Source: Minisyncoccota bacterium
GTDB taxonomy: Bacteria; Patescibacteriota; Minisyncoccia; Phycocordibacterales; JABAAK01
NCBI GenBank assembly: GCA_958295675.1
Contig: OY282360.1
Coordinates: forward strand, 466,026-530,025
Reading direction: 5' to 3'
DNA: 64,000 bases
This document shows positions 10,425 through 64,000 of this stretch, piece after piece. Position 1 is the stretch's first letter; every line of letters starts with the position of its first letter. Made by a program: the position numbers and the translations under genes. The notes under the pieces are model-generated. The model saw only the letters and a program-made list of their open reading frames with translations, was not told where the DNA came from and searched no databases.

Positions 10425-10469
10425 GAGTTGAGAGGTGATTCCTCTTGAGCGAATGGAATGGATGAGCAG

Positions 10470-36499: not shown

Positions 36500-37402
36500 T
36501 CAGAAAAATGTCTGTTGATCTGTTTCTACAAAGCGCCTTCTGTGCAAAACAGCAATAAGGACAAGGAGTTCCGCGGCAATAACGGTCAATGCTATCGCTA
36601 TCCACATCAGCATCTGATTGCTGTAATCAGGAATATTAACGATTGTAGTCGGCGCAGAATGTGCATCAGATGAGGATGTCCGCTGTATAGATGCGGAATC
36701 CAGATCGGCAGATGCACTCTGTGATTTAAATGTCGGTTTCACCGCCACGGAAACCGGAGATTCCTGCTGCAGCTCTTTCAGAACTTCCTGTTCAATTTCC
36801 TCTACCACTTCTTCTTCAACCGCAACTTCCTCCTGACCGGGTTCGGTATTCATAACGGTTATCGGATTAACCGCAATCGCGCCGGGAGTTGCCGGACCGG
36901 CAATCTGTTGCCCATTAACAACATGCAGTGATGCGCCGGTACCGGACGCCCGAGGATCCGGCGTGTAGAAGAATGAGAACACTGTCTCTTTGGTCTGCAT
37001 ATTGTAAATATCCAGACCTTCACCGATACCGCCCTGCTGCCGCAAACTGAATTTTGAAAGAAACAGAGGCGAGGAATATGCCGGATATTCATTCATAAAA
37101 ACATCTTCATCCTGCACTATAACACCGACCTCACCCGGCGACAAATCTTTGATACCATCACCTGACTCCCTGATGTAGTGACGGGTATTCCCTTCCACGA
37201 AACGAAACGCGGTCACATCAAGGGTCTGCTGACTGTCATTTATAATCTCAAGCCATTCATAACCGCTATCTTTCTTTTGAGGGGGATCATACATCACTTC
37301 CGTAATAGCAATCTGCGCGGAAGCGAGGATGATCAGACCGTGAACAGCACAAATCGCGCTTATTCCGAAGATGCAGAATTGAGATGCAAATCCGCGTACC
37401 AT
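36500..37402 (-). CDS. Lamin-tail-domain (LTD) surface protein with signal peptide and C-terminal TM anchor
   Basis: LTD signature ITEVMYDPPQKKDSGYEWLEIINDS...LDV. Signal peptide, and a C-terminal hydrophobic anchor WIAIALTVIAAELLVLIAVL. Confidence 0.72.
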   Translation of the reverse strand: MVRGFASQFCIFGISAICAVHGLIILASAQIAITEVMYDPPQKKDSGYEWLEIINDSQQTLDVTAFRFVEGNTRHYIRESGDGIKDLSPGEVGVIVQDEDVFMNEYPAYSSPLFLSKFSLRQQGGIGEGLDIYNMQTKETVFSFFYTPDPRASGTGASLHVVNGQQIAGPATPGAIAVNPITVMNTEPGQEEVAVEEEVVEEIEQEVLKELQQESPVSVAVKPTFKSQSASADLDSASIQRTSSSDAHSAPTTIVNIPDYSNQMLMWIAIALTVIAAELLVLIAVLHRRRFVETDQQTFF

Positions 37403-37434: not shown

Positions 37435-39849
37435 TTACCCGCCAACAATAACAGTCGGGAGCGTGAGAGCGGAACTGGCGTTGCCGGCAGTGTCCGTCAC
37501 GGTAATTGTGCAGCTCTCATATCTCCCCGTATCCAGCTCATAGGGTACTCCATAACCGCCGTTGCGAACCATAAACTTAAGAAGTCCATCCCCGCATACA
37601 TTGTTATAACCCACACTCAGCCAATCACCCGGCTGTATACCGGAAACGGTGGTGGGAACAACAACATTGTCTGAATCAGCACCCGCAAAACCGAGTACAG
37701 AAGCCGAAGTACCGCTTATCAGTGTCGGAGAAGAGGTGTTGCGCACGAAAACAAGAACATTTCTCTTGCTGCTCATCGTGTCATCGTCATCAGTCACCGC
37801 AAAACTAAGTTTCACGCGGTTGTCCTTGGCGACACCGCTCGCAGGTGAAAAATGAACAGTGTAGACAATGTACACATTGCCGCTGCCATAGGTAACTTTT
37901 CCTTTCTCATACCTCGCCGCACTGGCATCAGTCGCGGTCATAGTCACCGAAACACGGTCAGAAACATTTGAACTGGAATACCGGGTATCATTATCGGCAA
38001 TCTTAACTTTCACAGTAACGCTGTCCTTGGTGGTGAAGAAAATATTCTGTCCGGCGGTAACGGATGATTTGCCGTCAAACTCTCGAACATCAACAACCGG
38101 CCTATCCACATCCACCTGCACTGCTGCTTCAACAACAAGTTCTTCTTCAGGGGGTTCAACGCGCTCACCGGCAACAGCGGCGATACCCGGCGTGGGCGCG
38201 CCTTCAACTATCTCACCGGTTGAAAGGATGTGCAGCGTCTTACCATTTTTATACGCACCGTTGCTCCGCTTATAAGTTACGCTGTCAATAACAGTTGATC
38301 CGGAACGAAGTCCGATGGTCTCACCGCTGTCCGTGAGAGAGATTGATGCGGTAAACAGCGGTCCGCTGTGTGACGGATACTCACTCCGAAAAGTGTTGAG
38401 ATCACCATTTTTCACAATAACAGCAACATCACCATTGGCAATTGTTGTTCCGCCGGAGCGATGTGTGATGCTTTTCGGACTGCCTCCGTCAACAATAGCG
38501 AGATCATCAACAACAGTTATAGTTGAAGAGCCGCTGTTGACAATTTCAATCCATTCCCCGCCCTCGGTACTGACATAACTCATTTCGCTTATCTCAACAG
38601 TAAGCGCAGTAATGCCGGTAATTTCGTCCGAAGAGGAGTACGCGGTATGATTCGCGAGATCAGTCACTTTCATACATACATACTTATTATTGTTATCAGA
38701 ACCGAACAGGTTAATAGTTGCTGTGTGCGTTTTCACGCCTTCGTCATCAGTTTCCGTTACAACCGGCACCGTCTTTGCTTCCGTTGCAACCCCGTCATAT
38801 GCCGCCTTATCAGCACAGGCGGAAGTATGCATTTTGTAACTCACTTCAGTCGGCGGCGAAGTGTCGGTAATAGTCGCGGTGATCTTTTTGCGCGAAGTAT
38901 TTCCTGTCGGTGCTGTCATTGAGAAAGCGACCGAAGGGGTATCAGTGTCTATAACCGCCGGATTGCCGTCATGGGTAACGGCACCCGTTCTGAGCGTGTC
39001 GCTTCCCTTTTTAATCGTGTAAGTAATCCGTCCGGAAGGATCATCCGCGGCAACAGTGTAGGTAAACTCTTTGTTGATAGCAGTGGCACCGGAGGATGCG
39101 GTCATGGTCCGCTCGACAGCACCTATGCTTATTTTCGCCGTTACACCGCTCGGTAACGCACTGGCATGAAAGACACGCAAAGTAATCACATCACCTGTAT
39201 CCAAAAGAGTAAGATCACCGGCAGCAGTGCCGTTCGCGATAGAAGACGATACTGACACGCCGGCGGTAATCGGCGTGAATGATTCTATCGGGTTCACCGC
39301 TATCTCACCGGGTGTCGGCGGTGCGGCGACAAGCCGCGCGTTCAGACCGACATGCAGTGAAATACCTGTCCCGTTTGCCCGCGCATCGGTGTTGTAGGTG
39401 ACAGCATGCACTTTTGTCGCGCCGTTTGAAGCATACAGCGCGACTCCTGTGCCGTTGGTGTCCGGAAGCGTGAATGAACTGCTGTACAACGGTCCGCTAT
39501 AACCGCTGTATGCCGTTGAAAAATCAGATGCGCTCGCCGCAATAACCGCGACTGCTCCGGCAGCAAGAGACGCTGTGGTAGTGCCGTGTGTTGAAATACT
39601 CCGCTTGGTGCCGTCATTGACACCGACCTTCAGTGTTGAAAGATCCACCGCGGCACTGCTTGTGTTAATAATCTCAATCCATTCCCCGCCCTTGTGCGGA
39701 CTATACATCACTTCCGTTATCTCAACATCATTCGCGCTCTGCGCGCTCACAGTAAAAAGAAAAGAGAATGCAAATAATACAAGAAAGACAACCGATGAAA
39801 TAAAAAACCAACTATACCGAATATTTATATGATTTGTATGTGTATTCAT
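37435..39849 (-). CDS. Large secreted multi-LTD (lamin tail domain) surface protein (~805 aa)
   Basis: Signal/TM anchor followed by at least two LTD signatures (EITEVMYSPHKGGEWIEIINTS; EISEMSYVSTEGGEWIEIVNSGS) and long Thr/Ser/Val-rich beta-rich regions. Confidence 0.72.
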   Translation of the reverse strand: MNTHTNHINIRYSWFFISSVVFLVLFAFSFLFTVSAQSANDVEITEVMYSPHKGGEWIEIINTSSAAVDLSTLKVGVNDGTKRSISTHGTTTASLAAGAVAVIAASASDFSTAYSGYSGPLYSSSFTLPDTNGTGVALYASNGATKVHAVTYNTDARANGTGISLHVGLNARLVAAPPTPGEIAVNPIESFTPITAGVSVSSSIANGTAAGDLTLLDTGDVITLRVFHASALPSGVTAKISIGAVERTMTASSGATAINKEFTYTVAADDPSGRITYTIKKGSDTLRTGAVTHDGNPAVIDTDTPSVAFSMTAPTGNTSRKKITATITDTSPPTEVSYKMHTSACADKAAYDGVATEAKTVPVVTETDDEGVKTHTATINLFGSDNNNKYVCMKVTDLANHTAYSSSDEITGITALTVEISEMSYVSTEGGEWIEIVNSGSSTITVVDDLAIVDGGSPKSITHRSGGTTIANGDVAVIVKNGDLNTFRSEYPSHSGPLFTASISLTDSGETIGLRSGSTVIDSVTYKRSNGAYKNGKTLHILSTGEIVEGAPTPGIAAVAGERVEPPEEELVVEAAVQVDVDRPVVDVREFDGKSSVTAGQNIFFTTKDSVTVKVKIADNDTRYSSSNVSDRVSVTMTATDASAARYEKGKVTYGSGNVYIVYTVHFSPASGVAKDNRVKLSFAVTDDDDTMSSKRNVLVFVRNTSSPTLISGTSASVLGFAGADSDNVVVPTTVSGIQPGDWLSVGYNNVCGDGLLKFMVRNGGYGVPYELDTGRYESCTITVTDTAGNASSALTLPTVIVGG

Positions 39850-40004
39850 ATACCTTATAAAGAACATTAATAAACAGTCCGTGCCGCCCGCACTATCGTG
39901 TTAACCATAAAAAAATAGTACATCAAAAAATATAGCGCGAATTATTTTTTACACATAGCAAACGACATATATAAATATCGGAAACAATCTATATTGGAAA
40001 CAAT

Positions 40005-40580: not shown

Positions 40581-40696
40581 AGATTGTGAACAAAAGAATC
40601 AAGATCTACAGACATGACCACGACAACCGCGCGGAAAACATGACAGTCAACCCACATACATAAAAAAATACTTTGCCGTGTTATCATGCGGTGTGT

Positions 40697-41572
40697 ATGG
40701 ATGTTCGCACACAGTTTTTTTTAAGTATGGTGGGTCTCGGTATTATTGTCATATTCCTCAGTGTTCTGGTGTACCTTTCCGCAACGACTGACCCGCTGCC
40801 GAACAATGAAACTGAATCTCTATTCAGACCGGTTGCTATTGATAGTTCAAATACACTCGGCGTGAACACATTATTCCCCGGTCGTTCCGCCGACAATGAA
40901 AACACGCTCGAAGAAAGTGAGGAAGATATTATCGCGACGGTCACATTACAGGACACTAAAACCCCGGGAACAGAATTAAACGAGAACGAAGAAAAAAATT
41001 TGAAAGATAATGAGATAGAATACACAGTTCGGATGTCCGTTTCATGGAGTAAACTACTCTTCCCGGATTGGTATCCTGCAGGCGCACACCTGTCCCCCAT
41101 GGTCGTGTGGTCGCACCGACTTGAAGACGCGGTGTTCAAACCGGGTGAAATCGCCAGCGACGGCATGGAGAGAATGGCAGAAGTTGGTGCCACCGCTGAA
41201 CTAAAAAAAGAAATTGAATATCTCGGCAACGCCGGCTATCTGCTGCACTACGCGACCGGCAGGCGAATTGACGCGCCCGGAGAAGATTCCGTCAATGTTA
41301 TATTATCCGCAAACACACCGCTGGTAAGCGCGGTAAGTATGGTAGCACCGAGTCCGGACTGGTTTGTTGCCGCGCGCAATGTTCGTCTTTTTCAAAACGG
41401 ACAATGGATTGACCGGTTGTCCGTACCGGCTACACTCTATGATGCGGGAACTGACAGCGGCGACACATTCACCGCGCGCAACGACGACACCAACCCGCCG
41501 AATTCTATCACTGCCCTGCCGTCCGCACCGACAGTGCCGATAGTGACATTTGAATTCATTCGCGTGAATTGA
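40697..41572 (+). CDS. Secreted/anchored Spondin_N-like domain protein
   Basis: N-terminal signal anchor. The domain contains ...LSPMVVWSHRLEDAVFKPGEIASDGMERMAEVG...APSPDWFVAARNVRLFQNGQWIDRLSVPATLYDAGTDSG, which matches the F-spondin N-terminal (Spondin_N) fold signature (SPDWFVG...DAGTDSG). The start is chosen at the internal Met MDVRTQ. Confidence 0.55.
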   Translation: MDVRTQFFLSMVGLGIIVIFLSVLVYLSATTDPLPNNETESLFRPVAIDSSNTLGVNTLFPGRSADNENTLEESEEDIIATVTLQDTKTPGTELNENEEKNLKDNEIEYTVRMSVSWSKLLFPDWYPAGAHLSPMVVWSHRLEDAVFKPGEIASDGMERMAEVGATAELKKEIEYLGNAGYLLHYATGRRIDAPGEDSVNVILSANTPLVSAVSMVAPSPDWFVAARNVRLFQNGQWIDRLSVPATLYDAGTDSGDTFTARNDDTNPPNSITALPSAPTVPIVTFEFIRVN

Positions 41573-41576
41573 AATA

Positions 41577-42935
41577 TCACGATCGCTCGCGCATCACTTT
41601 CTGTATCTCCTCCCGAATAATGCGTCGTTCATCCCACGGCAATGATTCTCCGCGCACTTCCATAGTCAACTCGGCTCCTTTGCCGGTAATAATGACCACA
41701 TCACCGCCGCGCGCCATTGCAATAGATTTATAAATCGCCTTTCTCCTGTCCGGTTCAACCTCCCACCTTGCTTTCTCATTTTTCTTGGCACCGGCAACCA
41801 CTGCGTCAATAATTATTTTTGGGTCATCAAAAAACGGATCCACATCGGTGATGATGGTTCTGTCAGCATAGGCGGTGGTCGTCTCCCCTATCTGCCGCGC
41901 ATTATACTTCCAACGGGACGCACCGACAGCACCGACAACCATAATCACCGCGCCGTTCTTTCCTGCATACCCACTCAGCGCGTTGTACACGCTCGCTATA
42001 CTGAGCGGTTCATGCGCATAATCACAAAAAACTTTAAAAGGCTGTCCTTCATCAATACACTCAAGCCGACCGGGAAGCACAATTGACGACAACGCCTGCT
42101 GTATCACCTCCGAGGAAGTATCACAATACCGTTTCGCAAGCAGTATTGCCGGTGTGACATTTCTGACGGTAATTGAACCGGGAAGTGATACGGTATACCT
42201 GTCTCCTTCAAGAAAAAAAACATTTTCATCCCTTCCGCTTTCCTCATCTATACATGCCCGCACCGAAGCATTCGGTCCGAATCCGAACAAAATCTGCTCG
42301 CTTCGGGATGAAGAAGCGCAATTACGAAAATATTCCATATACCGATCATCGGCATTCAGTAGCACAAAACGCGGTATCGGTTTGCCGTGTATTACTTTCT
42401 GATACATTTGCGCATGCCGTCTGAACAACCGTCCTTTAACCGCGCGGTATCGCTCAAAAGTTTTATGCGTCACGAGATGTTCCGCGGCAAGATTAGTGAA
42501 CACCAAAGAGTCATAATGCACACCGAGATCCCTGAATTGCCGTATTCCCTCTGACGGTGTCTCAATAACCGCATACACGCAACCGGCATCAAGCATATTA
42601 CGAAGCTGCCGCTGCACAAAACCGCGTCCCGGCATGGTCATGTGCATGGTATTCGGGTACACCTCATTGCCGATACGCGTTTCAACAGTGGAAAGAAGTC
42701 CTGTTTTGCATCCGGATGCGGAAAGCACTGCATGGAGAAACAAAGCTGTGGTGGTCTTTCCTTTGGTGCCGGTCACACCGATGACAATAATGTGTCGGGA
42801 TGGATGTCTGTACACAATAAACGCGACGACGGCAATGATAAAATGATATGTGAGCATTAAAAACTCCGGTATATACCGCACAACACCACCCTTAACTTTT
42901 CTGACAATTGACCACGGTGCGTCCATTTTCAGCAT
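41577..42935 (-). CDS. Mur ligase family protein (MurE/MurF-like UDP-MurNAc-peptide ligase)
   Basis: P-loop VIGVTGTKGKTTTALFL and Mur ligase middle and C-terminal domain pattern. The specific paralog was not resolved. Confidence 0.65.
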   Translation of the reverse strand: MLKMDAPWSIVRKVKGGVVRYIPEFLMLTYHFIIAVVAFIVYRHPSRHIIVIGVTGTKGKTTTALFLHAVLSASGCKTGLLSTVETRIGNEVYPNTMHMTMPGRGFVQRQLRNMLDAGCVYAVIETPSEGIRQFRDLGVHYDSLVFTNLAAEHLVTHKTFERYRAVKGRLFRRHAQMYQKVIHGKPIPRFVLLNADDRYMEYFRNCASSSRSEQILFGFGPNASVRACIDEESGRDENVFFLEGDRYTVSLPGSITVRNVTPAILLAKRYCDTSSEVIQQALSSIVLPGRLECIDEGQPFKVFCDYAHEPLSIASVYNALSGYAGKNGAVIMVVGAVGASRWKYNARQIGETTTAYADRTIITDVDPFFDDPKIIIDAVVAGAKKNEKARWEVEPDRRKAIYKSIAMARGGDVVIITGKGAELTMEVRGESLPWDERRIIREEIQKVMRERS

Positions 42936-42956
42936 TACTAATCAGTATACCACCAC

Positions 42957-44039
42957 TTACCGGTTATACTCCTCACGAAGCTCAACCATGGTGGCTAAGT
43001 ACCATTTTCTCAGAAAACGGTATGCCCGAGTAACAGGATACCACCGTACAGCACGAAATATCCGATATCGAAGACCGGAAACGACAATATCCAGTAAATC
43101 TCCCCTATCAACAACATTCCCGCCAAATTTCCCCTTAAAAGCGGACTGCGCACGCAGGGTTCGCAGCACCGTATCATCTTGCATTGAAACAGCACCGAGG
43201 TTGTACCGCCACAATCCTTGTTTTTTTGAGTCCTTAATCGCCGTGTACAGTGCCAGGGTGGGCATCGTCTCATATCCGGGTGCATTTGCTGTAAGCATAC
43301 AATGGGCTTCATATCCGGCATAAGCGGTAATCACGGCAGAAACCGGCGTTTTACCGTCAGAAATATACCCAAGCGTCAATGTCACATATTCCGGGTTAGC
43401 GTTCATCTCATCAAAGAGAGATTCATAGTATGCAAACGGATGCATTTCACAGTTATCAGATGCCGATTCCGCGGAAAGTAATGCATACACATTTGAAAGG
43501 TGTGATTTAAAATCTGTTTTTTCTGAATAAAAGCGGATATTCTCCTTGTCCTGCTCATATTGCTTGACAATACTTCTCGTGTCAGCAGCAAAATTGCCGA
43601 TAATGGCATCCAAATCTTCATTAAGAGTGATAACTCGTTCAGTAGGCGGACGGCTTTCCGCGCTGAGAGTTCGTTCCGCGGGTTTGGTGCGTATACGCCG
43701 CGATGTCGGCTCTCCCTGTATACGAATATGCACGGTGTCCGTAACCGCATCAAGACACTGACGGCAAAGTTCTTCATAAAATTCCTCTTCAATTGAAACT
43801 GAACCAAAAGAACCGAGCGGTCCGTGAAATGCGACCCACACCGTACCGAGCAACGGCACAGTGTGTCCGACACACTGAACATACGCCCGAATTTTATTCT
43901 CCTCATCATCCATAGCAAGAGCAACAATCGGACGACCGATCCGTTCCTGCCATCGACGATAAAAAAGACCCTGATACAATGAAATATCCTTAAAATGCTT
44001 CTCCGGGTCAAACGAATTGGGCGGTGTGTACAGATACAT
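42957..44039 (-). CDS. FemAB-like / GNAT-fold peptidoglycan interpeptide-bridge transferase-like protein (tentative)
   Basis: Size (~360 aa), position next to the Mur ligase and weak overall resemblance. No diagnostic motif was confirmed. Confidence 0.35.
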   Translation of the reverse strand: MYLYTPPNSFDPEKHFKDISLYQGLFYRRWQERIGRPIVALAMDDEENKIRAYVQCVGHTVPLLGTVWVAFHGPLGSFGSVSIEEEFYEELCRQCLDAVTDTVHIRIQGEPTSRRIRTKPAERTLSAESRPPTERVITLNEDLDAIIGNFAADTRSIVKQYEQDKENIRFYSEKTDFKSHLSNVYALLSAESASDNCEMHPFAYYESLFDEMNANPEYVTLTLGYISDGKTPVSAVITAYAGYEAHCMLTANAPGYETMPTLALYTAIKDSKKQGLWRYNLGAVSMQDDTVLRTLRAQSAFKGKFGGNVVDRGDLLDIVVSGLRYRIFRAVRWYPVTRAYRFLRKWYLATMVELREEYNR

Positions 44040-47381: not shown

Positions 47382-47533
47382 GAGCCATCCTCCTTTTACT
47401 GAAAAAGAAACAAATGCTTACCTCCACACTCTCGAGCGAAGATCAGCATCTTTTGAAAAAGAAAATGGAGAGATAGTAACTTCAATCTCACCATTATGTC
47501 CGTTATGTATTATACAGTAAAATAAATAAATAG

Positions 47534-47755
47534 TCAAATAAAAAACACCGGAGGTGAAACATCCCAACAATCAGCACGATTGGCACGATGCTTCACTTTC
47601 CGGCAATATTTGCTCCGATCCCGTTCGGTACGGGAACGGAACTGAGGATTCGTCACCAAATCTTTGGCAACCCAATTCCCTGCTTTGTGCGACTCAAGCT
47701 GCTTAAGCCGCCGACGCTGCCGTTTTGACAGCCCTTTTTTAGCAACCGTGCTCAT
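47534..47755 (-). CDS. Small basic hypothetical protein (73 aa)
   Basis: Lys/Arg-rich ORF. It may not be a real gene. Confidence 0.25.
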   Translation of the reverse strand: MSTVAKKGLSKRQRRRLKQLESHKAGNWVAKDLVTNPQFRSRTERDRSKYCRKVKHRANRADCWDVSPPVFFI

Positions 47756-47860
47756 GCTCTCCTCCGTTTCAGGTTTGCTACACTATATATAATAGCAAAA
47801 TATAGAATATTTGTCAAAATTTCAATAAAACACTTACAAAGAGGAGTATCTCCTATATAC

Positions 47861-47889
47861 TTGACAATTCAATAAAAATTGTGTATTAT
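47861..47889 (+). promoter_or_regulatory. Strong sigma70-type promoter TTGACA-17-TATTAT
   Basis: ttgaca attcaataaaaattgtg tattat. The transcription start site is predicted near 47896. Confidence 0.6.
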
Positions 47890-47895
47890 ATATAT

Positions 47896-48036
47896 GGGTG
47901 ACGGGCGGATGCGACTCTATACGATATTGGCTACAGTCCACCCTACCCCTTCGGGACTGCGCCCTCTCCGTCATCACCTTTATACTTATCAGGCACCCCC
48001 TGCGGTTCTCCGCAGGCGGTGCCTACCACTTTTTTA
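47896..48036 (+). ncRNA. Candidate ~140-nt small RNA (unknown family) between consensus promoter and intrinsic terminator
   Basis: 5' GGGUGACGG pairs with 3' CCGUCAUCACC. It has an internal CCC-UUCG-GGG hairpin and a terminal hairpin ggcaccccctgcgg/ccgcaggcggtgcc followed by UUUUUU. It has no coding potential. Confidence 0.45.
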
Positions 48037-48136
48037 ATACATACACTAAGGTTCTTAGTGCGTACTGATACTAACTATAATACACCCCACCTTTTTTAAC
48101 TTGTATAATTACTATTTTATTGGTATAGTATTTATT

Positions 48137-48589
48137 GGAGATGGGAAGTGTCCCATCAAGACCCCATCAGGTAGGGAAGGGATTGGTACTCTCTTCGTGA
48201 AGGTGCGTGGTACTTAGAGAAAGCGTTTAGTGTGGAAAGGGTGGATCGGCGGTGTAATTCCCCGAAAATTCCGAAATGTCCCTCATTCTTTAACAAGGAT
48301 TGAGGTTTGGGTAACTGTGATGGACGAGCATAAACCACTTACCAATGGTTTGTGCAAACTCTCGTCTATTGCAGCGCCGGACCTGCTGGCAGTGGGTGCT
48401 GTCCAAGCCTGCGTGAGCCTTCCGACGTATATATGCCAAGGTTTCTGCACGCTGGGAACGGCTGCCATTGCTACGGCCGCGCGCCACAAAACATTTCCAA
48501 ACACTGAAAAAGGTCGGTAACATCCCGAGTGCCTGCTTCCTGTCTCCACCCCACACACATGTACATGTGTGTGGGGTGCATTCTTTTTT
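48137..48589 (+). ncRNA. Candidate large structured RNA, copy 1 (~450 nt, unknown class)
   Basis: Promoter TTGTAT-17-TATAGT at 48101-48129. Conserved sequence blocks are shared with copy 2 (gggaagtgt, ggtgyaattcccc, caaggattgaggtt, ttccgacgyatayagccaaggwtt, aaacactgrmaaaaggtcggtamcatc). The overlapping ORFs of the two copies are not similar at the protein level. It ends in a hairpin terminator at 48549-48589. Confidence 0.4.
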
Positions 48590-48796
48590 ACTCTGTGTCA
48601 GGTACCAGTAGAACACCTGCGCACCATTTTCTCATATCCTTCTCATCTGTACCTAACCTGCGTGGGGTGATTTTTTGCTGGCTATCAATGCTCTATATAG
48701 GCGGTGCTTTTTCCCACTTTGTATGCATGTGACAAGTGCTTTGTTAGGTTTTGATATCATAAATATAGCAAGGGATACACCTCTATGGTATAAAAC

Positions 48797-48824
48797 TTGC
48801 GAAAAATTGATCGTTTGCTATAAT
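48797..48824 (+). promoter_or_regulatory. Sigma70-type promoter TTGCGA-16-TATAAT for RNA element copy 2
   Basis: ttgcga aaaattgatcgtttgc tataat. Confidence 0.55.
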
Positions 48825-48831
48825 ACCATGC

Positions 48832-49314
48832 AGAAGATGGGAAGTGTTGGTGTGTCACAAAAAACACAACGGATTCTCATCAAGCGGGGAAGAAAGTCAT
48901 TTTCTGCTTGTGAGAATATTCAGATACTCCCGATGCAGCGTTTCAGTGCGGATACGAGTGGACCGGTGGTGCAATTCCCCGGAAAGCTTGAAGTGTCCTC
49001 GTCCTTTTGCAAGGATTGAGGTTGGCTACCGCATAGACAAGCAACTCACACTGTACCGCAGTGGTTTAAAAAAAGTGCTTGTCTTTGTACGGTTCACGAA
49101 CCCCCTGGTTCTGGAAGCTAGAGCTCATCAGCGAGTAGTAAGTGGATTCTTCCGACGCATACACGCCAAGGATTCCGCTCGCCGAGTTGGCTAACCATTA
49201 CCAACGGTCGTGTACATAAAATCACTTCCGAAACACTGGCAAAAGGTCGGTACCATCGGATATCGAACCTTCCCATCTTCTTCTTACCCCACCTATGTGT
49301 GGGGTGATTTTTTT
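48832..49314 (+). ncRNA. Candidate large structured RNA, copy 2 (~480 nt, paralog of 48137-48589)
   Basis: Same conserved blocks in the same order as copy 1, with variable intervening segments. Terminator ccccacctatgtgtgggg+T7 at 49287-49314. Confidence 0.4.
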
Positions 49315-49435
49315 GCTGGCTATCAATGCTCTATATAGGCGGTGCTTTTTCCCACTTTGTATGCATTTGACAAGTACTTTGTTAGATGTTGCTATCATAA
49401 GTATGTCAAAGGATACATCCCTTTCCTATATATAC

Positions 49436-49464
49436 TTGCGAAAAGGTATGAAATATTGTAGTAT
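49436..49464 (+). promoter_or_regulatory. Sigma70-type promoter TTGCGA-17-TAGTAT for the small membrane protein gene
   Basis: It sits in a repeated module homologous to 48656-48830. Confidence 0.5.
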
Positions 49465-49524
49465 AGATATTAAAGGTAGCAGTAAGGTGCCTTTGTTCTG
49501 TTCATTGCAAAAAGGAAGCGATTG

Positions 49525-55062: not shown

Positions 55063-58000
55063 ATGCACATTACCCACAAAATCCTGCAAGTTGCACTTGC
55101 CATAAGTATACTCAGCATGCTGTTCGTGTCATACGGCATGACAGACGCACAGACCGCGTGCGCGGACGGAGAAGTACTCACCCTCGCCAGTACGGGTCTG
55201 GAGTGTGTTTCCGCGGAGCAGGCATTGCTGGAATCCAATAACTGTCCCGAAGGACAGTTTCTGCAGGTGACCACGGTCAACGGCGTCAGACAGGTTACCT
55301 GTGCCAGTGTTCCGACAGTGGACCCCCCAAAAGAATGCGGCACGGGAGAGTATGTCCGCGGTGTCAACAATGACGGGTCGCTGGACTGTGCGACCATTCA
55401 GACCGTCCCTTCCTGTGCAGTGTCGGTCTCACCCGCATCGCCGACAACAGCACAGTCGTTCACCTTAACGGTGACACCACGGAACTTCTCTGCTGCCGGT
55501 AACTATACCTACCGCTGGAAGTTTGACACGCAGAGCAGAATACTGCGTGAGGAAACGACCGCAATGACCTCAGATACCCTGTCCATTAACGCAGGAGACA
55601 TCGCCAACCCGTACAACTCACCGTACTATGTGACGGTGACGAAAAGCACACAAAGTACCTCATGCGGTATCGTGGTGCCGGTGGTTGCTGCTACCGTTCC
55701 ATCCTGCTCCGGCGGAAGTGTCAGCTGGACTGTGAACAACAAGACCTGCACCGGTTCCCTAGACGAGACAAAATCCGGTAGCAGCGATACTGCAATTGAT
55801 AGCAACAGACCGCCCACCGGCAGCGCGACCTATCACTGTAATAATGACAGGACATGGGGAGAACCAACGAGCGCATCATGTGCAGACGATCCTCCCCACT
55901 GCCAAGAAGACGATGAGGTCACCTGGACAGTAGGCAGTCACACCTGCACCGGTTCCCGAGACGAGACAAACTCCGGTAGCAGCGATACTGCAACTGATAG
56001 CACCGGACCGTCAACCGGTAGCGCGACCTATAGCTGCAACAACGGTGCCTGGACCGAACCGACTAACACAAGTTGCGAATCTACAACTCTTCCTCCTCTC
56101 AAGTGTTCAGGCGGTAGTGTTGATTGGAGCGTGGACAATCACGACTGCACCGGTTCCCGAGACGAGACAAACTCCGGTAGCAGCGATACTGCAACTGATA
56201 GCACCGGACCGTCAACCGGTAGCGCGACCTATAGCTGTAACAACGGCGACTGGATCGCAACTAGCATGAGTTGCGGATATGGAGATCCACCCTGTAATTG
56301 CACCCCGTCCGCAACCGACAGCACAACCGCCGGTACCCGTGCCACACCTCATACATGGTGCAAGAGATCCTGCGCCGGTCGTACTGTCAGATGGACCGTG
56401 AACGGCAAGACCTGTTCGGGCTCCTTGCCAGAAGTAACTCCTGAAGCCGATATAGGTGAAAATCCAACCACCGTGTGGGACACGACTGGAACGACACGCG
56501 GCAGAGCCATTTACGACTGCAATGATGGTACCTTGAGCAACCCGCTGTTCGCGTGGTGCACAAGTGCGACGACATCCTGCGCCGCTGATACAGTCAGCTG
56601 GACCAAGAACGGCAGGACTTGCACAGCGTCCCGACCTATGGCACCTTCCGGCGGAGAGGTCTTCATACGGAGTACCGAAGGAACATCACGCGGCAGTGCG
56701 AAGTACCTCTGTACCAATGGCACCTGGAGCGACGAGCCATCTTTCGCATTGTGCGACAGAACATGTGCCGGTGGTACGGTCAATTGGACAGTAGGCAGTC
56801 ACACCTGCACCGGCACCCGAACCACAACACGACATGGTGGCGGCAGCGTCGCGAGGGATGCCACCAAACCAACAATCGGTGTCGCCGCCTACAGATGTGT
56901 TAATGGTACCTGGAGAACCATGTTTAGTAGATACGATGCTTCTTGGATTTTCTGGAGACATTGGAGTGACAATATGCATGACTCAATATGGTTAAGCGGA
57001 ACCGGTGCGACTTGCTCATCCACATCCTGTCCCGCCGATATAGTCACATGGAGTGAAGACAACAACAGAATTTGCAGATTTTCCCGCTCAATTACACCTT
57101 CCGGTGCATACGCTAATCTATTGGACACTGATGGATCAACGGGTGGTGGCGGATTTTACAAATGTAACGACAATGGCTCATGGGATGATGCTGACAGCAC
57201 GAATGCCTGCACCACGAGTGGGTGTCTGCAAGACGGCGTATGCGATACCAGCAGGCAGAACAGGTGCTCGTCCGGCACGCTCTACAATGATGCCAATGAC
57301 TCCGCGGTGGCTGACACGACCACGCACTACAAATGGCGCTGCGACGGACGGAATGGCGGAAAAAACTCTCCTGTCTGCGAAAAGGAAAAACCGTGCGGCA
57401 CCTGCAACTGCACTACATCAAAAACAGACGCTACGAACGCCGGTACTTGCAGTACCACCGGCAATACCTGCACCGTCTCGGCAAATAACTGTCCGAAGAG
57501 CCCTAAATGCGGTTCCTGGTCACCGGCACGAAACACGGTCTGTAGCGGCACGAGATTCACCCAGTTCAGAACCTGCAACACTGAGTGTAATAACTGTGCA
57601 ACAAGTCGGTTGACGACCGGGACAAAACCCCAAAGTGGGACATGGTCACCGGCACGAAACACGGTCTGTAGCGGCAAGAGATTCACCCAGTCCAGAACCT
57701 GCGGTTCACGATCAACGACCGGCACGAAACCGGCGACAAATTGTCAATGGGGACCTTGGAGTGATTGGAGTACATGTTCAAATGGCTCCCAAAGCAGATC
57801 AAGAAGTAAAACCGTAACCGAGTCAACCTGCGGCACCTGCTCAGGTTCAAGCACCCAATCACAGTGTTGTGGTAGTGGATGCACTCCTGTTCCTTGTGTC
57901 TGCACCGCATCAAAAACCGATGCCGCGAACAAAGGCACCTTGTCTGACGGCAGCGGTGCCTGCACCGTCACGGCGAATAACTGTCCGACAAAAACCTGCA

Positions 58001-60489
58001 ACTGCACTACATCAAAAACCGATGCTACGAACGCCGGCACCTGGTCTGACGGCAGCGGTGCCTGCAACGAGGCGAATAATTGTCCACAAACACCTGTATG
58101 CAACAATGCTGAAGTAGATGAATGCTTAGTCGGGCGCAAATCAAACACCGGCACGAGATGTCAAGATACCACTACGCTTGACCGTTGGTGTTGCATAGGA
58201 AAGCCCGACACTGAGATAGCGTATTGTGACATAAAGAAACCGGGATGTGAGGATAAAGATGTAACTTGGGGAACTCAATGTGGTGGAAGCACAGGAACAG
58301 CAAGTGCAAGCGGAAGTAAGGTAGTCGCCAATACTAAAGCTGGCTACACCGGCAGCGCGACCTACAGTTGTAACAACGAAACATGGAGTGGTCCGACCGC
58401 TTCGAGTTGTAGAGAGAATTTGTGTGAATGGAGTACCTGGTCACCGGCGGCGAATACAAAAACCTGCGGCACATCATTCACGCAAGAGAGAACCTGCGGT
58501 TCTGGAGATGAAACCAAACAGGAAACCCAAACCGCGACCGGTACCAAACCCAGTGCTTGGAGCACCTACGCACCGGCAACGAGCACGGTCTGCAGCGACG
58601 AATCATTCACGCAAGAGAGAACCAGAACCTGCGGTGACCCCACAAGCGAAGAGAGAACCGCGAGAGGGACGGCAACCTGGAGTACCTGGTCACCGGCGGC
58701 GAATACAAAAACCTGCGGCACATCATTCACGCAAGAGAGAACCTGCGGTTCTGGAGATGAAACCAAACAGGAAACCCAAACCGCGACCGGTACCAAACCC
58801 AGTGCTTGGAGCACCTACGCACCGGCAACGAGCACGGTCTGCAGCGACGAATCATTCACGCAAGAGAGAACCAGAACCTGCGGTGACCCCACAAGCGAAG
58901 AGAGAACCGCGAGAGGGACGGCAACCTGGAGTACCTGGTCACCGGCGGCGAATACAAAAACCTGCGGCACATCATTCACGCAAGAGAGAACCTGCGGTTC
59001 TGGAGATGAAACCAAACAGGAAACCCAAACCGCGACCGGTACCAAACCCAGTGCTTGGAGCACCTACGCACCGGCAACGAGCACGGTCTGCAGCGACGAA
59101 TCATTCACGCAAGAGAGAACCAGAACCTGCGGTGACCCCACAAGCGAAGAGAGAACCGCGAGAGGGACGGCAACCTGGAGTACCTGGTCACCGGCGGCGA
59201 ATACAAAAACCTGCGGCACATCATTCACGCAAGAGAGAACCTGCGGTTCTGGAGATGAAACCAAACAGGAAACCCAAACCGCGACCGGTACCAAACCCAG
59301 TGCTTGGAGCACCTACGCACCGGCAACGAGCACGGTCTGCAGCGACGAATCATTCACGCAAGAGAGAACCAGAACCTGCGGTGACCCCACAAGCGAAGAG
59401 AGAACCGCGAGAGGGACGGCAACCTGGAGTACCTGGTCACCGGCGGCGAATACAAAAACCTGCGGCACATCATTCACGCAAGAGAGAACCTGCGGTTCTG
59501 GAGATGAAACCAAACAGGAAACCCAAACCGCGACCGGTACCAAACCCAGTGCTTGGAGCACCTACGCACCGGCAACGAGCACGGTCTGCAGCGACGAATC
59601 ATTCACGCAAGAGAGAACCAGAACCTGCGGTGACCCCACAAGCGAAGAGAGAACCGCGAGAGGGACGGCAACCTGGAGTACCTGGTCACCGGCGGCGAAT
59701 ACAAAAACCTGCGGCACATCATTCACGCAAGAGAGAACCTGCGGTTCTGGAGATGAAACCAAACAGGAAACCCAAACCGCGACCGGTACCAAACCCAGTG
59801 CTTGGAGCACCTACGCACCGGCAACGAGCACGGTCTGCAGCGACGAATCATTCACGCAAGAGAGAACCAGAACCTGCGGTGACCCCACAAGCGAAGAGAG
59901 AACCGCGAGAGGGACGGCAACCTGGAGTACCTGGTCACCGGCGGCGAATACAAAAACCTGCGGCACATCATTCACGCAAACGAGAACCTGCGGTTCTGGA
60001 GATGAAACCAAACAGGAAACCCAAACCGCGACCGGTACCAAACCAAGAGACGGCGGATGGAGTACCTATGGTTCTTGCGAATGTACCTCCAGCACTTTTG
60101 ATGCGGCGAACGCCGGTACACAGAGCAGAACCTGCAACAACCCGGTACGGGGGTGCTCCGGCAGCGCATGCTCCGGCAGCGCATCCCAATCCTGTACCGT
60201 CTCGGCGAATAATTGTCTAGAAAGAAACGGTCAGTGTGGTGGTGACCCTACAATAAGCGGCGACGCATTCACTGGATACTATGTTCTTAATAAGCATAGG
60301 AATTCACTCTGTAAATATGGGACATCTTATGGTTTTAGATCATTACGAGAAAGCGACCAAGGAGGTACTCAACATCCAAATCCTAATCTTAGATTCTACA
60401 AAGCAGTTTGGAAATGCGCTGAAAGCAGCAATGATGTTTCTGTTTCTGTTGCCAGTTGTTCCAAAACATTTTTTGTGCCGGGCTCCTAG
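55063..60489 (+). CDS. Giant secreted Cys-rich protein (1808 aa) with thrombospondin-type-1-like (WSxWS...C...RTC) repeats
   Basis: Signal peptide MHITHKILQVALAISILSMLFVSYGMTDAQTA. The N-terminal half holds repeated ~50-aa Cys modules (C.GGSV.WTV....CTGSRDETNSGSSDTATDS.GPSTGSATYSCNNG.W). The middle carries GSWSPARNTVCSGTRFTQFRTC and CQWGPWSDWSTCSNGSQSRSRSKTVTESTCGTC (TSR-like). The C-terminal half is 6.5 identical 83-aa repeats WSTWSPAANTKTCGTSFTQERTCGSG...WSTYAPATSTVCSDESFTQERTRTCGD. Confidence 0.8.
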   Translation: MHITHKILQVALAISILSMLFVSYGMTDAQTACADGEVLTLASTGLECVSAEQALLESNNCPEGQFLQVTTVNGVRQVTCASVPTVDPPKECGTGEYVRGVNNDGSLDCATIQTVPSCAVSVSPASPTTAQSFTLTVTPRNFSAAGNYTYRWKFDTQSRILREETTAMTSDTLSINAGDIANPYNSPYYVTVTKSTQSTSCGIVVPVVAATVPSCSGGSVSWTVNNKTCTGSLDETKSGSSDTAIDSNRPPTGSATYHCNNDRTWGEPTSASCADDPPHCQEDDEVTWTVGSHTCTGSRDETNSGSSDTATDSTGPSTGSATYSCNNGAWTEPTNTSCESTTLPPLKCSGGSVDWSVDNHDCTGSRDETNSGSSDTATDSTGPSTGSATYSCNNGDWIATSMSCGYGDPPCNCTPSATDSTTAGTRATPHTWCKRSCAGRTVRWTVNGKTCSGSLPEVTPEADIGENPTTVWDTTGTTRGRAIYDCNDGTLSNPLFAWCTSATTSCAADTVSWTKNGRTCTASRPMAPSGGEVFIRSTEGTSRGSAKYLCTNGTWSDEPSFALCDRTCAGGTVNWTVGSHTCTGTRTTTRHGGGSVARDATKPTIGVAAYRCVNGTWRTMFSRYDASWIFWRHWSDNMHDSIWLSGTGATCSSTSCPADIVTWSEDNNRICRFSRSITPSGAYANLLDTDGSTGGGGFYKCNDNGSWDDADSTNACTTSGCLQDGVCDTSRQNRCSSGTLYNDANDSAVADTTTHYKWRCDGRNGGKNSPVCEKEKPCGTCNCTTSKTDATNAGTCSTTGNTCTVSANNCPKSPKCGSWSPARNTVCSGTRFTQFRTCNTECNNCATSRLTTGTKPQSGTWSPARNTVCSGKRFTQSRTCGSRSTTGTKPATNCQWGPWSDWSTCSNGSQSRSRSKTVTESTCGTCSGSSTQSQCCGSGCTPVPCVCTASKTDAANKGTLSDGSGACTVTANNCPTKTCNCTTSKTDATNAGTWSDGSGACNEANNCPQTPVCNNAEVDECLVGRKSNTGTRCQDTTTLDRWCCIGKPDTEIAYCDIKKPGCEDKDVTWGTQCGGSTGTASASGSKVVANTKAGYTGSATYSCNNETWSGPTASSCRENLCEWSTWSPAANTKTCGTSFTQERTCGSGDETKQETQTATGTKPSAWSTYAPATSTVCSDESFTQERTRTCGDPTSEERTARGTATWSTWSPAANTKTCGTSFTQERTCGSGDETKQETQTATGTKPSAWSTYAPATSTVCSDESFTQERTRTCGDPTSEERTARGTATWSTWSPAANTKTCGTSFTQERTCGSGDETKQETQTATGTKPSAWSTYAPATSTVCSDESFTQERTRTCGDPTSEERTARGTATWSTWSPAANTKTCGTSFTQERTCGSGDETKQETQTATGTKPSAWSTYAPATSTVCSDESFTQERTRTCGDPTSEERTARGTATWSTWSPAANTKTCGTSFTQERTCGSGDETKQETQTATGTKPSAWSTYAPATSTVCSDESFTQERTRTCGDPTSEERTARGTATWSTWSPAANTKTCGTSFTQERTCGSGDETKQETQTATGTKPSAWSTYAPATSTVCSDESFTQERTRTCGDPTSEERTARGTATWSTWSPAANTKTCGTSFTQTRTCGSGDETKQETQTATGTKPRDGGWSTYGSCECTSSTFDAANAGTQSRTCNNPVRGCSGSACSGSASQSCTVSANNCLERNGQCGGDPTISGDAFTGYYVLNKHRNSLCKYGTSYGFRSLRESDQGGTQHPNPNLRFYKAVWKCAESSNDVSVSVASCSKTFFVPGS
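58432..60050 (+). repeat. Perfect 249-bp tandem repeat x ~6.5 inside the giant TSR-like gene
   Basis: Antisense ORFs at 58566, 58815, 59064, 59313 and 59562 are 100% identical 249-nt units. The last unit has one substitution (Q->T). Confidence 0.9.
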
Positions 60490-60574
60490 GATTAGCAACG
60501 CTGTATATAAGAGCAAATAAAAAAACCCCCGCGGATAACCGCGGGGGTAGTGCCTTGTAGGCGAAAAAAAGAGG

Positions 60575-63148
60575 TTACCGATCAACGACCGGCAGCATCG
60601 CCGCAGCGCAGCGGAAGTCAACGAGTCCCTGACCGAATTCACGGTCAACCCCGGGCTCCCCGATATCCGTCGCGCACGACTTCAGGGCGTGCACCACATC
60701 CTCCGCATCCTCGTAGGTCTGGAAGAGGTGGAACACCGCCGCGCTGAGTGCCGGTGCCGATGCCGAGGTAATCCTCGACTGCTCCACCGCGAAGCACTGC
60801 TCCCTGGTGTCGCCGCACATCATGACACCGGTATCCGGCACGACCGTGCCGTCCTGTCTGCGCACCGCCGCGGTCGCCATCAGCACCTTACCGGTCCTGA
60901 CCGCGTCCATCGTTGCGGTATACATCCACCGCCGACCGCCATCATCACAGGTGAAGTACGAATGGTCAGGACGCCACAGGTCCCGATCCGGATTGTCCGG
61001 CGGATCGCACTGATTCACGCTATGGTGGTTCACATTACCGGCACTCGCCACAAATATGATATTGTGCGCAGCAATGTGCTCCGCAGCAAGCCTGTTGAAG
61101 GCGGGCAGTACCGACCGGTTCACCACCAGGGTCTCGGCGCGCAGAGCGGCGTTGTCCGGGTGGGTCAGGAAGCCGTACGCACCGTCCACTACGCGCCAGT
61201 CCGTTATCCCCGGACCGTGCACATGGATGTTCGCTTTCGGCACGCCCTCTTCTTTCATGTTCACATACACCGTCCGCTGGGCATGGCTGCCCTCAAACGC
61301 TTCACCATCAGCCAACTCCGAGATCACCAGTTTGTAGCGGTGTTCGTCATCGTCAGTGATACGACCGATGAGGTCGCGCATGCCGGCGAAGGACAGGGTG
61401 TTGGTTACCGTGATCGGCTCGGTGTGCGTGGCTTCCGCGCCGTAGCGGTCGGTAACGGTCAGGGTGACCGGGTAGGTCGTTGTGGCGGGGTAGCGACCCT
61501 CGTAGCCGTGGCGAGCGCCCCGGGTACGCCCGAAGAACCAGGTACTGTCGTAGACAAACAGGGGGGTCGGACCGGTGCCGGTCGTGGTGTCAACCCGCAG
61601 ACTGTTCTCCCCGAAGTCCCAGGCGTAGTCCGTGAGGTCTCCTTTGGACGCGGTGGCGTCAAAGCGGATGCCGAACGGGATGCCGTCGTCCTCCTCGTAG
61701 GTGAACGATGCTTCCACAGGTCTGGCGATGACCCGAATGCCTGCCGGTGTGTAGGAGAGGTTGGTGAGGTGCCCGGTTGTTGTCTGTATGAGGGACAGCA
61801 GGATGACGGGATTGGTCGCGGTGACCATGAGCCGCCACTTACCGCTGCCGTCGCCGAGTCCCAGATCTTCCAGCCGTTTGGCGGTGAAGGTTTTCACTTC
61901 ATTGCCCCGCAGGGTGATGCGGACTGTACTGTCGCCTTCTCTGCCTCTATCGTCAAAGCCGCGGACGGTGACCGTGGTCACGGCACCCGTGGTGTTGACG
62001 ATTCGCAAACTGCTCTCCCGATCGGTATTGCTGCCCGGGTTGAGTATGGGTACCTGGTGCGTCCGTCCCGCATCACCCACGATATCGTGGAGTGCGGTGA
62101 GAAAACCGTCATCGGTGCGCATGTAGGCGAGTACCTGTAGGTCCAGATCGCCGGAGACCGTCAGCCGCCAGTGACCGGTACCGTCGCCGACACCGGTGAT
62201 ACCTTTGGCGACACTGCCGTTTTCCAGATCATTGGAGTTGAAGTGCCGCACCTGATTGGCGCCGATGGGGATGGTGAACGAGCCCCGTTCGGTGCCCGAG
62301 TCATCCCTGGCGCGTACCGTCACGGTGCCCGCTTCCGGTGAGCGGTTGATGATCCGCGCGAAACTCTGCCTGAACCGCGAGACCGCGGTGAACAGCGGAA
62401 TCGTGGTGCCTTCCGGTGCCGATGAGAGGTTCGTGAGGTAGCCGACCTTGGTGCTCATGAGGGACATGACGACAATGGATTCCGGTGCCGTGACGAGCAA
62501 TCGCCACTTACCGCTTCCGTTGCCGAGTCCTCCGTTCTCCAGGTCTTTCGCGCTCAGGGTACGTGCACCGTTGGGGCGGAGGGATACCGTCACGGGACGG
62601 TCTCCCGCTGCACCCTGATCGTCAGTACCCCGCACGGTTACCGTGATAGTCCGCCCCGACCGATTGATCAGCCGGAGCATACTCTCCTGGTTCACGTTTG
62701 AGGCGGGATTGAAGGTCATGACCCGGTAGACCCCGTCAGGGCCTCGTGCCACGGTGTTGTTCATCGCGGTGAGAAAGCCGTCATCGGTACGCAGGTACGC
62801 GGTGACCGCAATCGGCAGCGCACTGTCCAGTGCGAGCTGCCAGTCACCGGTGCCGTTGCCGATACCGGTGATACCTTTCACGGCATTGCCGTTCTCCAGG
62901 TCGTCTGAGTTGAAGTGGTACACCGCGGATGCAGCGATGCGGAACGAACTCCGGTGCAGGACACCGGCATCGTCACGGGCACGGATTGTGACCGTACCGT
63001 CTCGGTGTGCGAGATTCACGACTCGCGTGAATCCCTGCCGAATACCGTCATTCGCGGGAGCGAACAGCGGTACCGTCTGTGTTTCGCCGACTGCGAATGT
63101 CGCGGTCAGCAGGAAAACAGGCAGGATGCCTGCTGCTCGTCTGTGCAT
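60575..63148 (-). CDS. Secreted modular protein (857 aa): duplicated ~215-aa beta-rich modules + PKD-like domain + C-terminal subtilase-like (degenerate) domain. Markedly GC-rich.
   Basis: Signal peptide MHRRAAGILPVFLLTATFAVG. Two copies of a module each contain two sub-repeats (GTVTIRARDD.G...F.I.A..V.HFNSDDLENG...KGITG.G.GTG.W). PKD-like motif FTYEEDDG...FDATASKGDLTDYAWDFGE. The C-terminus has FVASAGN and TSASAPALSAAV, reminiscent of S8 oxyanion/Ser motifs, but clear Asp/His motifs were not found. Confidence 0.65.
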   Translation of the reverse strand: MHRRAAGILPVFLLTATFAVGETQTVPLFAPANDGIRQGFTRVVNLAHRDGTVTIRARDDAGVLHRSSFRIAASAVYHFNSDDLENGNAVKGITGIGNGTGDWQLALDSALPIAVTAYLRTDDGFLTAMNNTVARGPDGVYRVMTFNPASNVNQESMLRLINRSGRTITVTVRGTDDQGAAGDRPVTVSLRPNGARTLSAKDLENGGLGNGSGKWRLLVTAPESIVVMSLMSTKVGYLTNLSSAPEGTTIPLFTAVSRFRQSFARIINRSPEAGTVTVRARDDSGTERGSFTIPIGANQVRHFNSNDLENGSVAKGITGVGDGTGHWRLTVSGDLDLQVLAYMRTDDGFLTALHDIVGDAGRTHQVPILNPGSNTDRESSLRIVNTTGAVTTVTVRGFDDRGREGDSTVRITLRGNEVKTFTAKRLEDLGLGDGSGKWRLMVTATNPVILLSLIQTTTGHLTNLSYTPAGIRVIARPVEASFTYEEDDGIPFGIRFDATASKGDLTDYAWDFGENSLRVDTTTGTGPTPLFVYDSTWFFGRTRGARHGYEGRYPATTTYPVTLTVTDRYGAEATHTEPITVTNTLSFAGMRDLIGRITDDDEHRYKLVISELADGEAFEGSHAQRTVYVNMKEEGVPKANIHVHGPGITDWRVVDGAYGFLTHPDNAALRAETLVVNRSVLPAFNRLAAEHIAAHNIIFVASAGNVNHHSVNQCDPPDNPDRDLWRPDHSYFTCDDGGRRWMYTATMDAVRTGKVLMATAAVRRQDGTVVPDTGVMMCGDTREQCFAVEQSRITSASAPALSAAVFHLFQTYEDAEDVVHALKSCATDIGEPGVDREFGQGLVDFRCAAAMLPVVDR

Positions 63149-63360
63149 GAGAAACGTCCTCGTTGTGTGTGGAAAGAACAGGGTTCTGGCGGGTAGTGTA
63201 GCATATTTTGCTGGTTTATGCTGTGGCAGATACTGTACAGCGTCTCCTATGTTAATGAATGTATGTTTTGAAACATCTTTGACTTTTTCTTTTTCTTTTT
63301 TTTTATTTTTTTAATTGATAATCAGTATCGCGGTATCCCGCGATGTATACTACGGGGTAA

Positions 63361-63431
63361 CGGACTGTAGCATAATGGTAGTGTGCACGCATGGGGTGCG
63401 TGTGGTTCGGGTTCGATTCCCGGCAGTCCGA
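63361..63431 (+). tRNA. tRNA-Pro (anticodon GGG)
   Basis: Manual fold: acceptor CGGACUG/CAGUCCG, D-arm GCAU-AAUGGUA-GUGU, anticodon stem CACGC/GCGUG with loop AUGGGGU (anticodon GGG), T-arm UCGGG-UUCGAUU-CCCGG and discriminator A. CCA is not encoded. Confidence 0.65.
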
Positions 63432-63514
63432 CTCTGTGTAGCATCATATAGTGGAAAGCAATGTCTTTCTATAGCTCCGCACCATGCTGAATCATGTTTT
63501 GTATCACGCTGCTA

Positions 63515-63958
63515 TTACTGTTGAAGACCGGAAACAAATTCCAGCATCTGCTCTATCTTGCTCTGCAATCGCTCTTCCGTCTCACGCGCTCTGCGGGCGG
63601 TATATGTATCCAAATCCTGCAAAGATAACAATCGTTCCTGGTGTCCCTTCGCGAGGATTGATAATGACATGCGCAGGAATCTGATGAAATGATTGAAAAC
63701 CGCCCTGTCCGAACGGGATACATCAGTGATTGATTCACCGGTTGATTCAATAATTTTAGGAATCAGGTTTCTTTGAATCGGCAGGAAACATAACGGGGAA
63801 TCGGCATAGTACCGCGCCGGTACAAACAGTCCGTCCTCATTCTTTTTATACCCATAATCAATTTGTACGCCGTTTTCATTTATGTGTTCAATCTGATTCA
63901 TTTTTCTTCTGGTTGCCTTTTCTAAATCATCAGAAATAACTTCGTCAACGGAGCACAC
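63515..63958 (-). CDS. Hypothetical protein (147 aa)
   Basis: Intact ORF near the window end. No motif was recognised. Confidence 0.3.
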   Translation of the reverse strand: MCSVDEVISDDLEKATRRKMNQIEHINENGVQIDYGYKKNEDGLFVPARYYADSPLCFLPIQRNLIPKIIESTGESITDVSRSDRAVFNHFIRFLRMSLSILAKGHQERLLSLQDLDTYTARRARETEERLQSKIEQMLEFVSGLQQ

Positions 63959-64000
63959 GACATCGCCTGTTTCCCGGTCAATGATAATGGTGTCAACACC

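Follow-up and report, generated by a model that had tools for sequence, protein, structure and literature searches.

The open reading frame at 40697-41572 of the window (the whole 64,000-nt stretch of DNA that was analysed) encodes a protein that carries a genuine Spondin_N (FS) domain, as confirmed by the agreement of profile, pairwise sequence and predicted fold. The best explanation for this protein, to which we would assign a probability of roughly three in four, is that it is an ordinary CPR spondin-family protein whose anchored and stalked FS domain would act as a Ca2+-dependent module for surface binding or adhesion, and not part of a split F-spondin. An earlier note on this DNA had described an "F-spondin-like architecture split across genes"; the FS-domain part of that description stands, and the proposed split with a TSR-like giant protein does not. 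The features of the gene and its product are as follows.

40640..40669, forward strand: promoter-like site ATGACA-18-AAAAAT (9 of 12 matches in a consensus scan only; a weak candidate, scored against a consensus that may not be the host's).

40697..41572, forward strand: coding sequence of the spondin (FS) domain protein, 291 aa (ORF list; MDV start in orthologues; identity to P0001; Pfam Spond_N, 117.9 bits).

40703..40786, forward strand: predicted N-terminal transmembrane helix or uncleaved signal anchor, residues 3-30, VRTQFFLSMVGLGIIVIFLSVLVYLSAT (hydrophobicity; AF2 helix).

40787..41008, forward strand: acidic, low-complexity stalk, predicted to be disordered, residues 31-104 (composition; AF2).

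41009..41569, forward strand: FS (Spondin_N, PF06468) domain, residues 105-291 (Pfam, NCBIfam, phmmer, AF2, Foldseek).

41348..41365, forward strand: PSPDWF motif, residues 218-223, with D221 the equivalent of the human F-spondin Ca2+ ligand D325 (alignment; PMC3117680).

41438..41461, forward strand: YDAGTDSG motif, residues 248-255, with D249 and D253 the equivalents of D354 and D358 (alignment; PMC3117680).

The reading frame runs on the forward strand from the ATG at 40697 to a TGA stop at 41570-41572 in the ORF list and specifies 291 aa, so that the coordinates and the length of ~290 aa reported earlier were correct. A mechanical alternative start (TTG, 40673) lies upstream of this ATG; ATG 40697 was taken as the true start because the orthologues all begin with MDV, aligned at this codon, and because the public-database copy of the protein (P0001, NCBI/ENA) is also 291 aa long and 100% identical to the window protein over its full length. 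The gene is divergent from a gene for a DUF1761 membrane protein, with a 116-bp intergenic region between them; the promoter-like site, situated about 28 nt upstream of the ATG, is the sole such match within this spacer. On its other side the spondin gene is convergent with a Mur-ligase gene, and the two stop codons are 4 nt apart. An opposite-strand ORF at 40684-41229 (181 aa) was set aside as a shadow of the real spondin gene. The spondin gene is native, since it resembles the genes around it in GC fraction (0.499) and occupies a syntenic place in four related genomes; the orthologues P0002, P0006 and P0007 served for the synteny comparison. On the same grounds, the ideas of a eukaryotic contaminant and of a recently transferred gene were rejected.

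We examined the protein with profile, pairwise and structural searches, two of which (a PF06468 profile search and a comparison of the predicted structure to F-spondin) had been proposed as checks in the earlier note. The only Pfam match in the protein was Spond_N, PF06468, with an E value of 8.3e-34 and a score of 117.9 bits, where the gathering threshold is 24 bits; the match covers residues 108-277 and spans profile positions 2-175 of 194. The NCBIfam model NF038123 ("spondin domain-containing protein") scored 84.3 bits against a cutoff of 40, and phmmer against PDB sequences retrieved the FS domain of mindin (3D34, E 3.7e-21) and that of F-spondin (3Q13, E 1.2e-12). An AlphaFold2 (AF2) model, built from a 35-sequence alignment, had a mean pLDDT of 85.6; within the FS domain most 10-residue blocks were at 94-98, with three C-terminal blocks at 79-88. 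The modelled domain is a C2-variant beta-sandwich, with two helices (residues 155-163 and 167-178) inserted among its strands between beta2 and beta3, as judged from AF2 and Foldseek together; this agrees with the FS fold, in which the two helices are antiparallel and a long linker joins beta7 and beta8. In a Foldseek search of the PDB, only two structures were matched at E<=1e-3, these being 3D34 (E 3e-18, target-normalised TM 0.80-0.82, rmsd 2.3-3.1 A, 26-28% identity) and 3Q13 (E 3e-15, target-normalised TM 0.71); the next match was at E 0.07, and the best match to a canonical lipid-binding C2 domain, at E 1.3, was not significant. The earlier identification of a Spondin_N-like domain is thus borne out by the profile score, by the 3D34 and 3Q13 matches and by the fold. 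The structure named for comparison in the note, 3COO, was the wrong one, as it shows the reeler domain at the N-terminus of F-spondin (PMC4882317); the FS structures are 3Q13 and 3D34.

The region which had been singled out as the hallmark of the domain, SPDWFVG...DAGTDSG, is present; the quoted sequence APSPDWFVAARNVRLFQNGQWIDRLSVPATLYDAGTDSGDTFTA is found at residues 217-260. In human F-spondin, whose FS structure with its Ca2+ site was solved at 1.95 A resolution, D325, D354 and D358, from the motifs P322SPDW and D354AGTD, make up the solvent-exposed Ca2+ site, and a membrane- or GAG-targeting role has been proposed for the domain (PMC3117680). The three ligands correspond to D221, D249 and D253 of the window protein. 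Over the 35 aligned relatives PSPDW (P218-S-P-D221-W) and DAGTD (D249-A-G-T-D253) are invariant, as are Y248, D249, G251, T252, D253 and G255; this conservation of the ligand residues suggests that the window protein would bind Ca2+.

The window protein is an ordinary member of an already catalogued bacterial spondin family, and the exact protein is already in the public databases. PF06468 was present in all 120 of the homologues listed, of 160; full-length relatives were 38-57% identical and lie on contigs of 0.5-0.85 Mb, which is as large as CPR genomes are. Among the matches listed, the closest named relatives are from Candidatus Kaiserbacteria, one of which (P0026) carries the NCBI name [quoted passage not shown]; the host is a small-genome bacterium of the Patescibacteria (CPR), placed by these closest named relatives. 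A locus scan with one genome per species gave at least 598 Spond_N loci in species-representative genomes of many phyla; those listed include Kaiserbacteria, Saccharibacteria, Spechtbacteria, Planctomycetota, Bacteroidota and Acidobacteriota, and also Gammaproteobacteria (Pseudoalteromonas, Vibrio, Photobacterium), Verrucomicrobiota, Spirochaetia, Myxococcota and others. When 1.84 billion cluster representatives were searched exhaustively with HMMER, 2,745 matched at E<=1e-3, of which 1,717 were at E<=1e-10, and some proteins had up to 8 FS domains. In large relatives, 2-8 FS domains are accompanied by modules of the Por_Secre_tail, He_PIG, TIG, Calx-beta, cadherin, PKD and DM13 types; for example, P0134 has 7 FS domains, and P0147 has a T9SS Por_Secre_tail. 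From the giant tandem-FS proteins and these module fusions it follows that bacterial surface proteins make repeated use of the FS domain as a module. Two of the database proteins from outside the window, P0133 and P0134, carry 7-8 tandem FS domains within 3704 and 1526 aa, respectively. In the literature searched, no experimental characterisation of any bacterial FS-domain protein was found. Two Spondin_N genes receive an incidental mention within the L-amino-acid-oxidase gene cluster of Pseudoalteromonas luteoviolacea (PMC6316408), and the main text of a Patescibacteria genetics paper does not mention the spondin domain (PMC10633639).

The window protein showed no essential difference from the bacterial NF038123/PF06468 family, in which a single FS domain of ~180 aa likewise follows an N-terminal membrane anchor, and in which the PSPDWF and YDAGTDSG motifs are invariant, as in P0026; the latter is 43% identical to the window protein, and other full-length CPR relatives are 45-57% identical. 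Within the family, the CPR subgroup has a transmembrane helix and an acidic stalk (~75 residues in the window protein), whereas members from Bacteroidota, Planctomycetota and other phyla have a lipoprotein signal peptide and a short linker. The multi-domain bacterial surface proteins share the FS domain and a similar extracytoplasmic or surface context with the window protein, but they are 500-4,000 aa long and combine FS with He_PIG, TIG, Calx-beta, cadherin, lactonase or GSDH, whereas the window protein is single-domain. [quoted passage not shown] The FS domain of F-spondin (spondin-1; 3Q13) is, like that of the window protein, an 8-stranded C2-variant sandwich with two helices between beta2 and beta3. 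F-spondin, however, also has a reeler domain (3COO) and six TSRs, and its FS domain or the sequence close to it bears three disulfides and an N-glycan; in the window protein there is no cysteine (and so none of the three disulfides), no reeler domain and no TSR.

The 291-aa protein contains zero cysteines and a single strongly hydrophobic segment, for which the Kyte-Doolittle 19-residue windows start at residues 3-16 and reach a maximum of 2.81. In the AF2 model residues 3-30 form one helix (pLDDT 89-97), and the alignment shows that a hydrophobic N-terminus is kept in the CPR relatives; the lone hydrophobic stretch and the modelled helix support the earlier description of the protein as anchored. 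Residues 31-104 are rich in E, T, N and D, with a net charge of -12, and were modelled at pLDDT 51-61 without secondary structure; in the alignment this stalk differs in length and sequence between orthologues. The Pfam search of the protein found no reeler domain, residues 1-104 being accounted for by the transmembrane helix and the disordered stalk, and no TSP1 repeat was found C-terminal to the FS domain, the protein ending with the last FS strand at residue 291. Relatives outside the CPR have, in the alignment, lipoprotein-type N-termini (L-x-x-C) in place of the transmembrane helix; this suggests an extracytoplasmic location across the FS-domain family.

The N-terminal segment might instead be a cleavable signal peptide, cut after L27-S28-A29 to free a soluble stalk and FS domain. 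The small-residue "LSA" (residues 27-29) that follows the hydrophobic stretch, widely kept as "SAT" in the orthologues, would suit such a cut, and the animal FS-domain proteins are secreted. We nevertheless think release unlikely: the hydrophobic core of ~23 residues, modelled as a 28-residue helix, exceeds the usual length of a cleaved signal peptide and suits a typical membrane anchor, and relatives in other phyla are lipid-anchored through a lipobox, which makes membrane tethering the norm for the family. Far less probable is the arrangement suggested in the earlier note, with the FS protein and a TSR-like giant protein forming two cooperating halves of an F-spondin-like extracellular system. 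That note placed the giant protein ~14 kb away, which was accurate: the giant ORF (55063-60489, forward strand, 1808 aa), coding for a cysteine-rich repeat protein rich in Thr and Ser, begins 13,491 nt after the spondin stop codon. Both proteins are predicted to be extracytoplasmic and are encoded in the same 64-kb window, and one unit of the giant protein (aa 894-943, CQWGPWSDWSTCSNGSQSRSRSK...) shows a WxxWxxW...RSRS pattern, its top PDB sequence matches all being TSR-containing (thrombospondin-1, E 0.0031; F-spondin TSR, 0.057; C9, 0.27). This isolated unit of ~50 aa, however, scored 17.3 bits for TSP_1, below the Pfam cutoff of 21.6; the full giant protein gave no Pfam match at E<=0.01, and its 6.5 tandem WSTWSP repeats matched nothing. 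A single borderline TSR-like unit at aa 894-943 is thus plausible from its sequence matches. About ten opposite-strand genes, mostly housekeeping, separate the spondin and giant genes (among them Mur ligase, FemAB-like, UvrC, three without a Pfam match, UvrA, ThrRS and RNase H), and the orthologous locus L003 runs Spond_N, Mur ligase, FemAB, UvrC, UvrA, ThrRS, RNase H, after which come a gene of 284 aa and DprA but no giant gene. A tblastn search with the giant protein against 84 Spond_N loci, taken with flanks of up to 10 kb on either side, gave 0 matches, and a repeated WSxWS..C protein was present in 0 of the 84. Close relatives of the giant protein were confined to its own 724,510-nt contig (the protein itself and one 97%-identical paralogue), and none occurred on the many 0.6-0.85 Mb contigs, from other near-complete genomes, that bear spondin orthologues. 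The window protein, moreover, has no reeler domain, and among the bacterial relatives examined there was no fusion of FS to TSP_1 or to Reeler. The co-occurrence of the spondin and giant genes is a peculiarity of one genome, and the two proteins are independent.

The neighbours on the other side of the spondin stop codon raise the further idea that the FS protein works together with the Mur ligase and the FemAB-like protein as an accessory factor in the assembly or sensing of peptidoglycan, perhaps with the wall or a lipid-linked precursor as its ligand. In the window the block of Mur ligase, FemAB-like and UvrC genes meets Spond_N tail to tail, and the same arrangement is found at L001/L002, L003/L004, L005 and L006, where the orthologues are 43-57% identical. 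The convergent orientation, however, makes a shared transcript impossible, and the conserved block also holds UvrC, UvrA and ThrRS; because of this orientation and the unrelated housekeeping genes in the block, the adjacency of Spond_N and Mur ligase is best read as inherited gene order. The adjacency does not extend to more distantly related Kaiserbacteria (L021, L007), to Saccharibacteria (L011) or to Spechtbacteria (L018), and tblastn of the window Mur ligase, FemAB-like protein and UvrC found nothing in the loci from other phyla. We therefore regard a part in cell-wall synthesis as improbable. A gene partner conserved across CPR lineages was likewise considered and rejected, the Mur ligase/FemAB/UvrC block being confined to the closest relatives and absent in those same four loci (L021, L007, L011, L018). 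In the CPR loci compared, DUF1761 was not conserved beside the Spond_N gene, and a lamin-tail-domain (LTD) protein recurred only in L021.

Several other observations were made in the window. Just upstream of the spondin gene, on the reverse strand, are genes for two LTD proteins, at 37435-39867 (810 aa) and 36500-37402 (300 aa); the latter scored 31.9 bits, just below the Pfam cutoff of 34.3. At the Kaiserbacteria locus L021 an LTD protein is encoded divergently upstream of the Spond_N gene, and the LTD and spondin genes may represent a loose cluster of surface proteins. The reverse-strand region 41577-44039 holds the Mur ligase (452 aa, with only its middle and C-terminal domains detected) and, next to it, the FemAB-like protein; the latter had no Pfam match in the window, its orthologues carry FemAB/Acetyltransf_6, and the pair is conserved in related genomes. 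From 47400 to 49470 there are ~2 kb without an ORF of >=120 aa in a genome that is otherwise densely coding. Within this stretch a unit of ~720-730 nt has been duplicated in tandem and has diverged (48241-48800 versus 48958-49430, with 78-94% identity between pieces), and the 32 nt at 48547-48578 form a perfect palindrome. When the region at 47.4-49.5 kb was scanned for repeats and against Rfam, no known RNA family was matched. The ORF-poor stretch falls within an insertion of ~4.7 kb between UvrC and UvrA, a place where L003 has only a 58-aa ORF. At 58429-60044 the giant gene holds a 249-bp tandem repeat in 6.5 near-perfect copies (99%), and the TSR-like unit at aa 894-943 of its product corresponds to nt 57742-57891. 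Its GC fraction is 0.545 versus 0.482 for the window, the AT skew reaches +0.44 at 58-60 kb, and the paralogue (P0122, 97% identical) is 1356 aa long; the giant protein is probably a fast-evolving surface protein. Local GC was 0.54-0.58 at 10001-12000 and at 56001-64000, compared to 0.43-0.49 in most of the window, and many overlapping ORFs on both strands were seen at 10.4-12.9 kb.

In the favoured reading, that of an anchored and stalked surface module, the N-terminal helix would be an uncleaved signal anchor that places the FS domain outside the cytoplasmic membrane, and the stalk would let the domain reach through or beyond the cell wall; by our estimate, ~75 residues could span up to ~25 nm when fully extended. 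By analogy to the animal domain, the exposed Ca2+ site may bind an anionic surface ligand such as lipid head groups or phosphorylated or sulfated glycans, and this ligand could reside on the envelope of the cell itself or on a host cell. The role would then be that of an adhesin or of ligand recognition, and not enzymatic. A surface or adhesin role is favoured because the large relatives fuse their two to eight FS domains to modules of the Por_Secre_tail, He_PIG, TIG, Calx-beta, cadherin and PKD types; a binding role for the FS domain of the window protein itself is argued from analogy. Points against it are that V-I-L stands in place of the LEV triplet of mindin, that the disulfides of F-spondin are missing, and that Foldseek recovered no significant similarity to lipid-binding C2 domains (best E 1.3).

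Cultivated CPR relatives are described as obligate episymbionts. A more specific proposal, which we offer tentatively and consider rather doubtful, is that the TM-anchored, stalked FS proteins kept in several lineages of Patescibacteria (Kaiserbacteria, Saccharibacteria, Spechtbacteria) are Ca2+-dependent adhesins with which these ultrasmall episymbionts bind anionic lipids or glycans on the host surface. If this were true, such proteins would do in prokaryotes what has been proposed for the FS domain of animals, namely membrane targeting, and they would fit a bacterial origin of the FS domain of the animal matrix. As a discovery the window protein carries little weight, the family being already modelled by Pfam and NCBIfam and present in hundreds of bacterial species; a split eukaryote-like matrix protein would have been of interest, and is unsupported. 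A small, cysteine-free, single-domain protein with a strictly conserved Ca2+ site and an architecture suited to surface display is nevertheless a convenient model for the question of what FS domains bind, and its conservation in genome-reduced CPR bacteria suggests a useful function at the cell surface, possibly host attachment.
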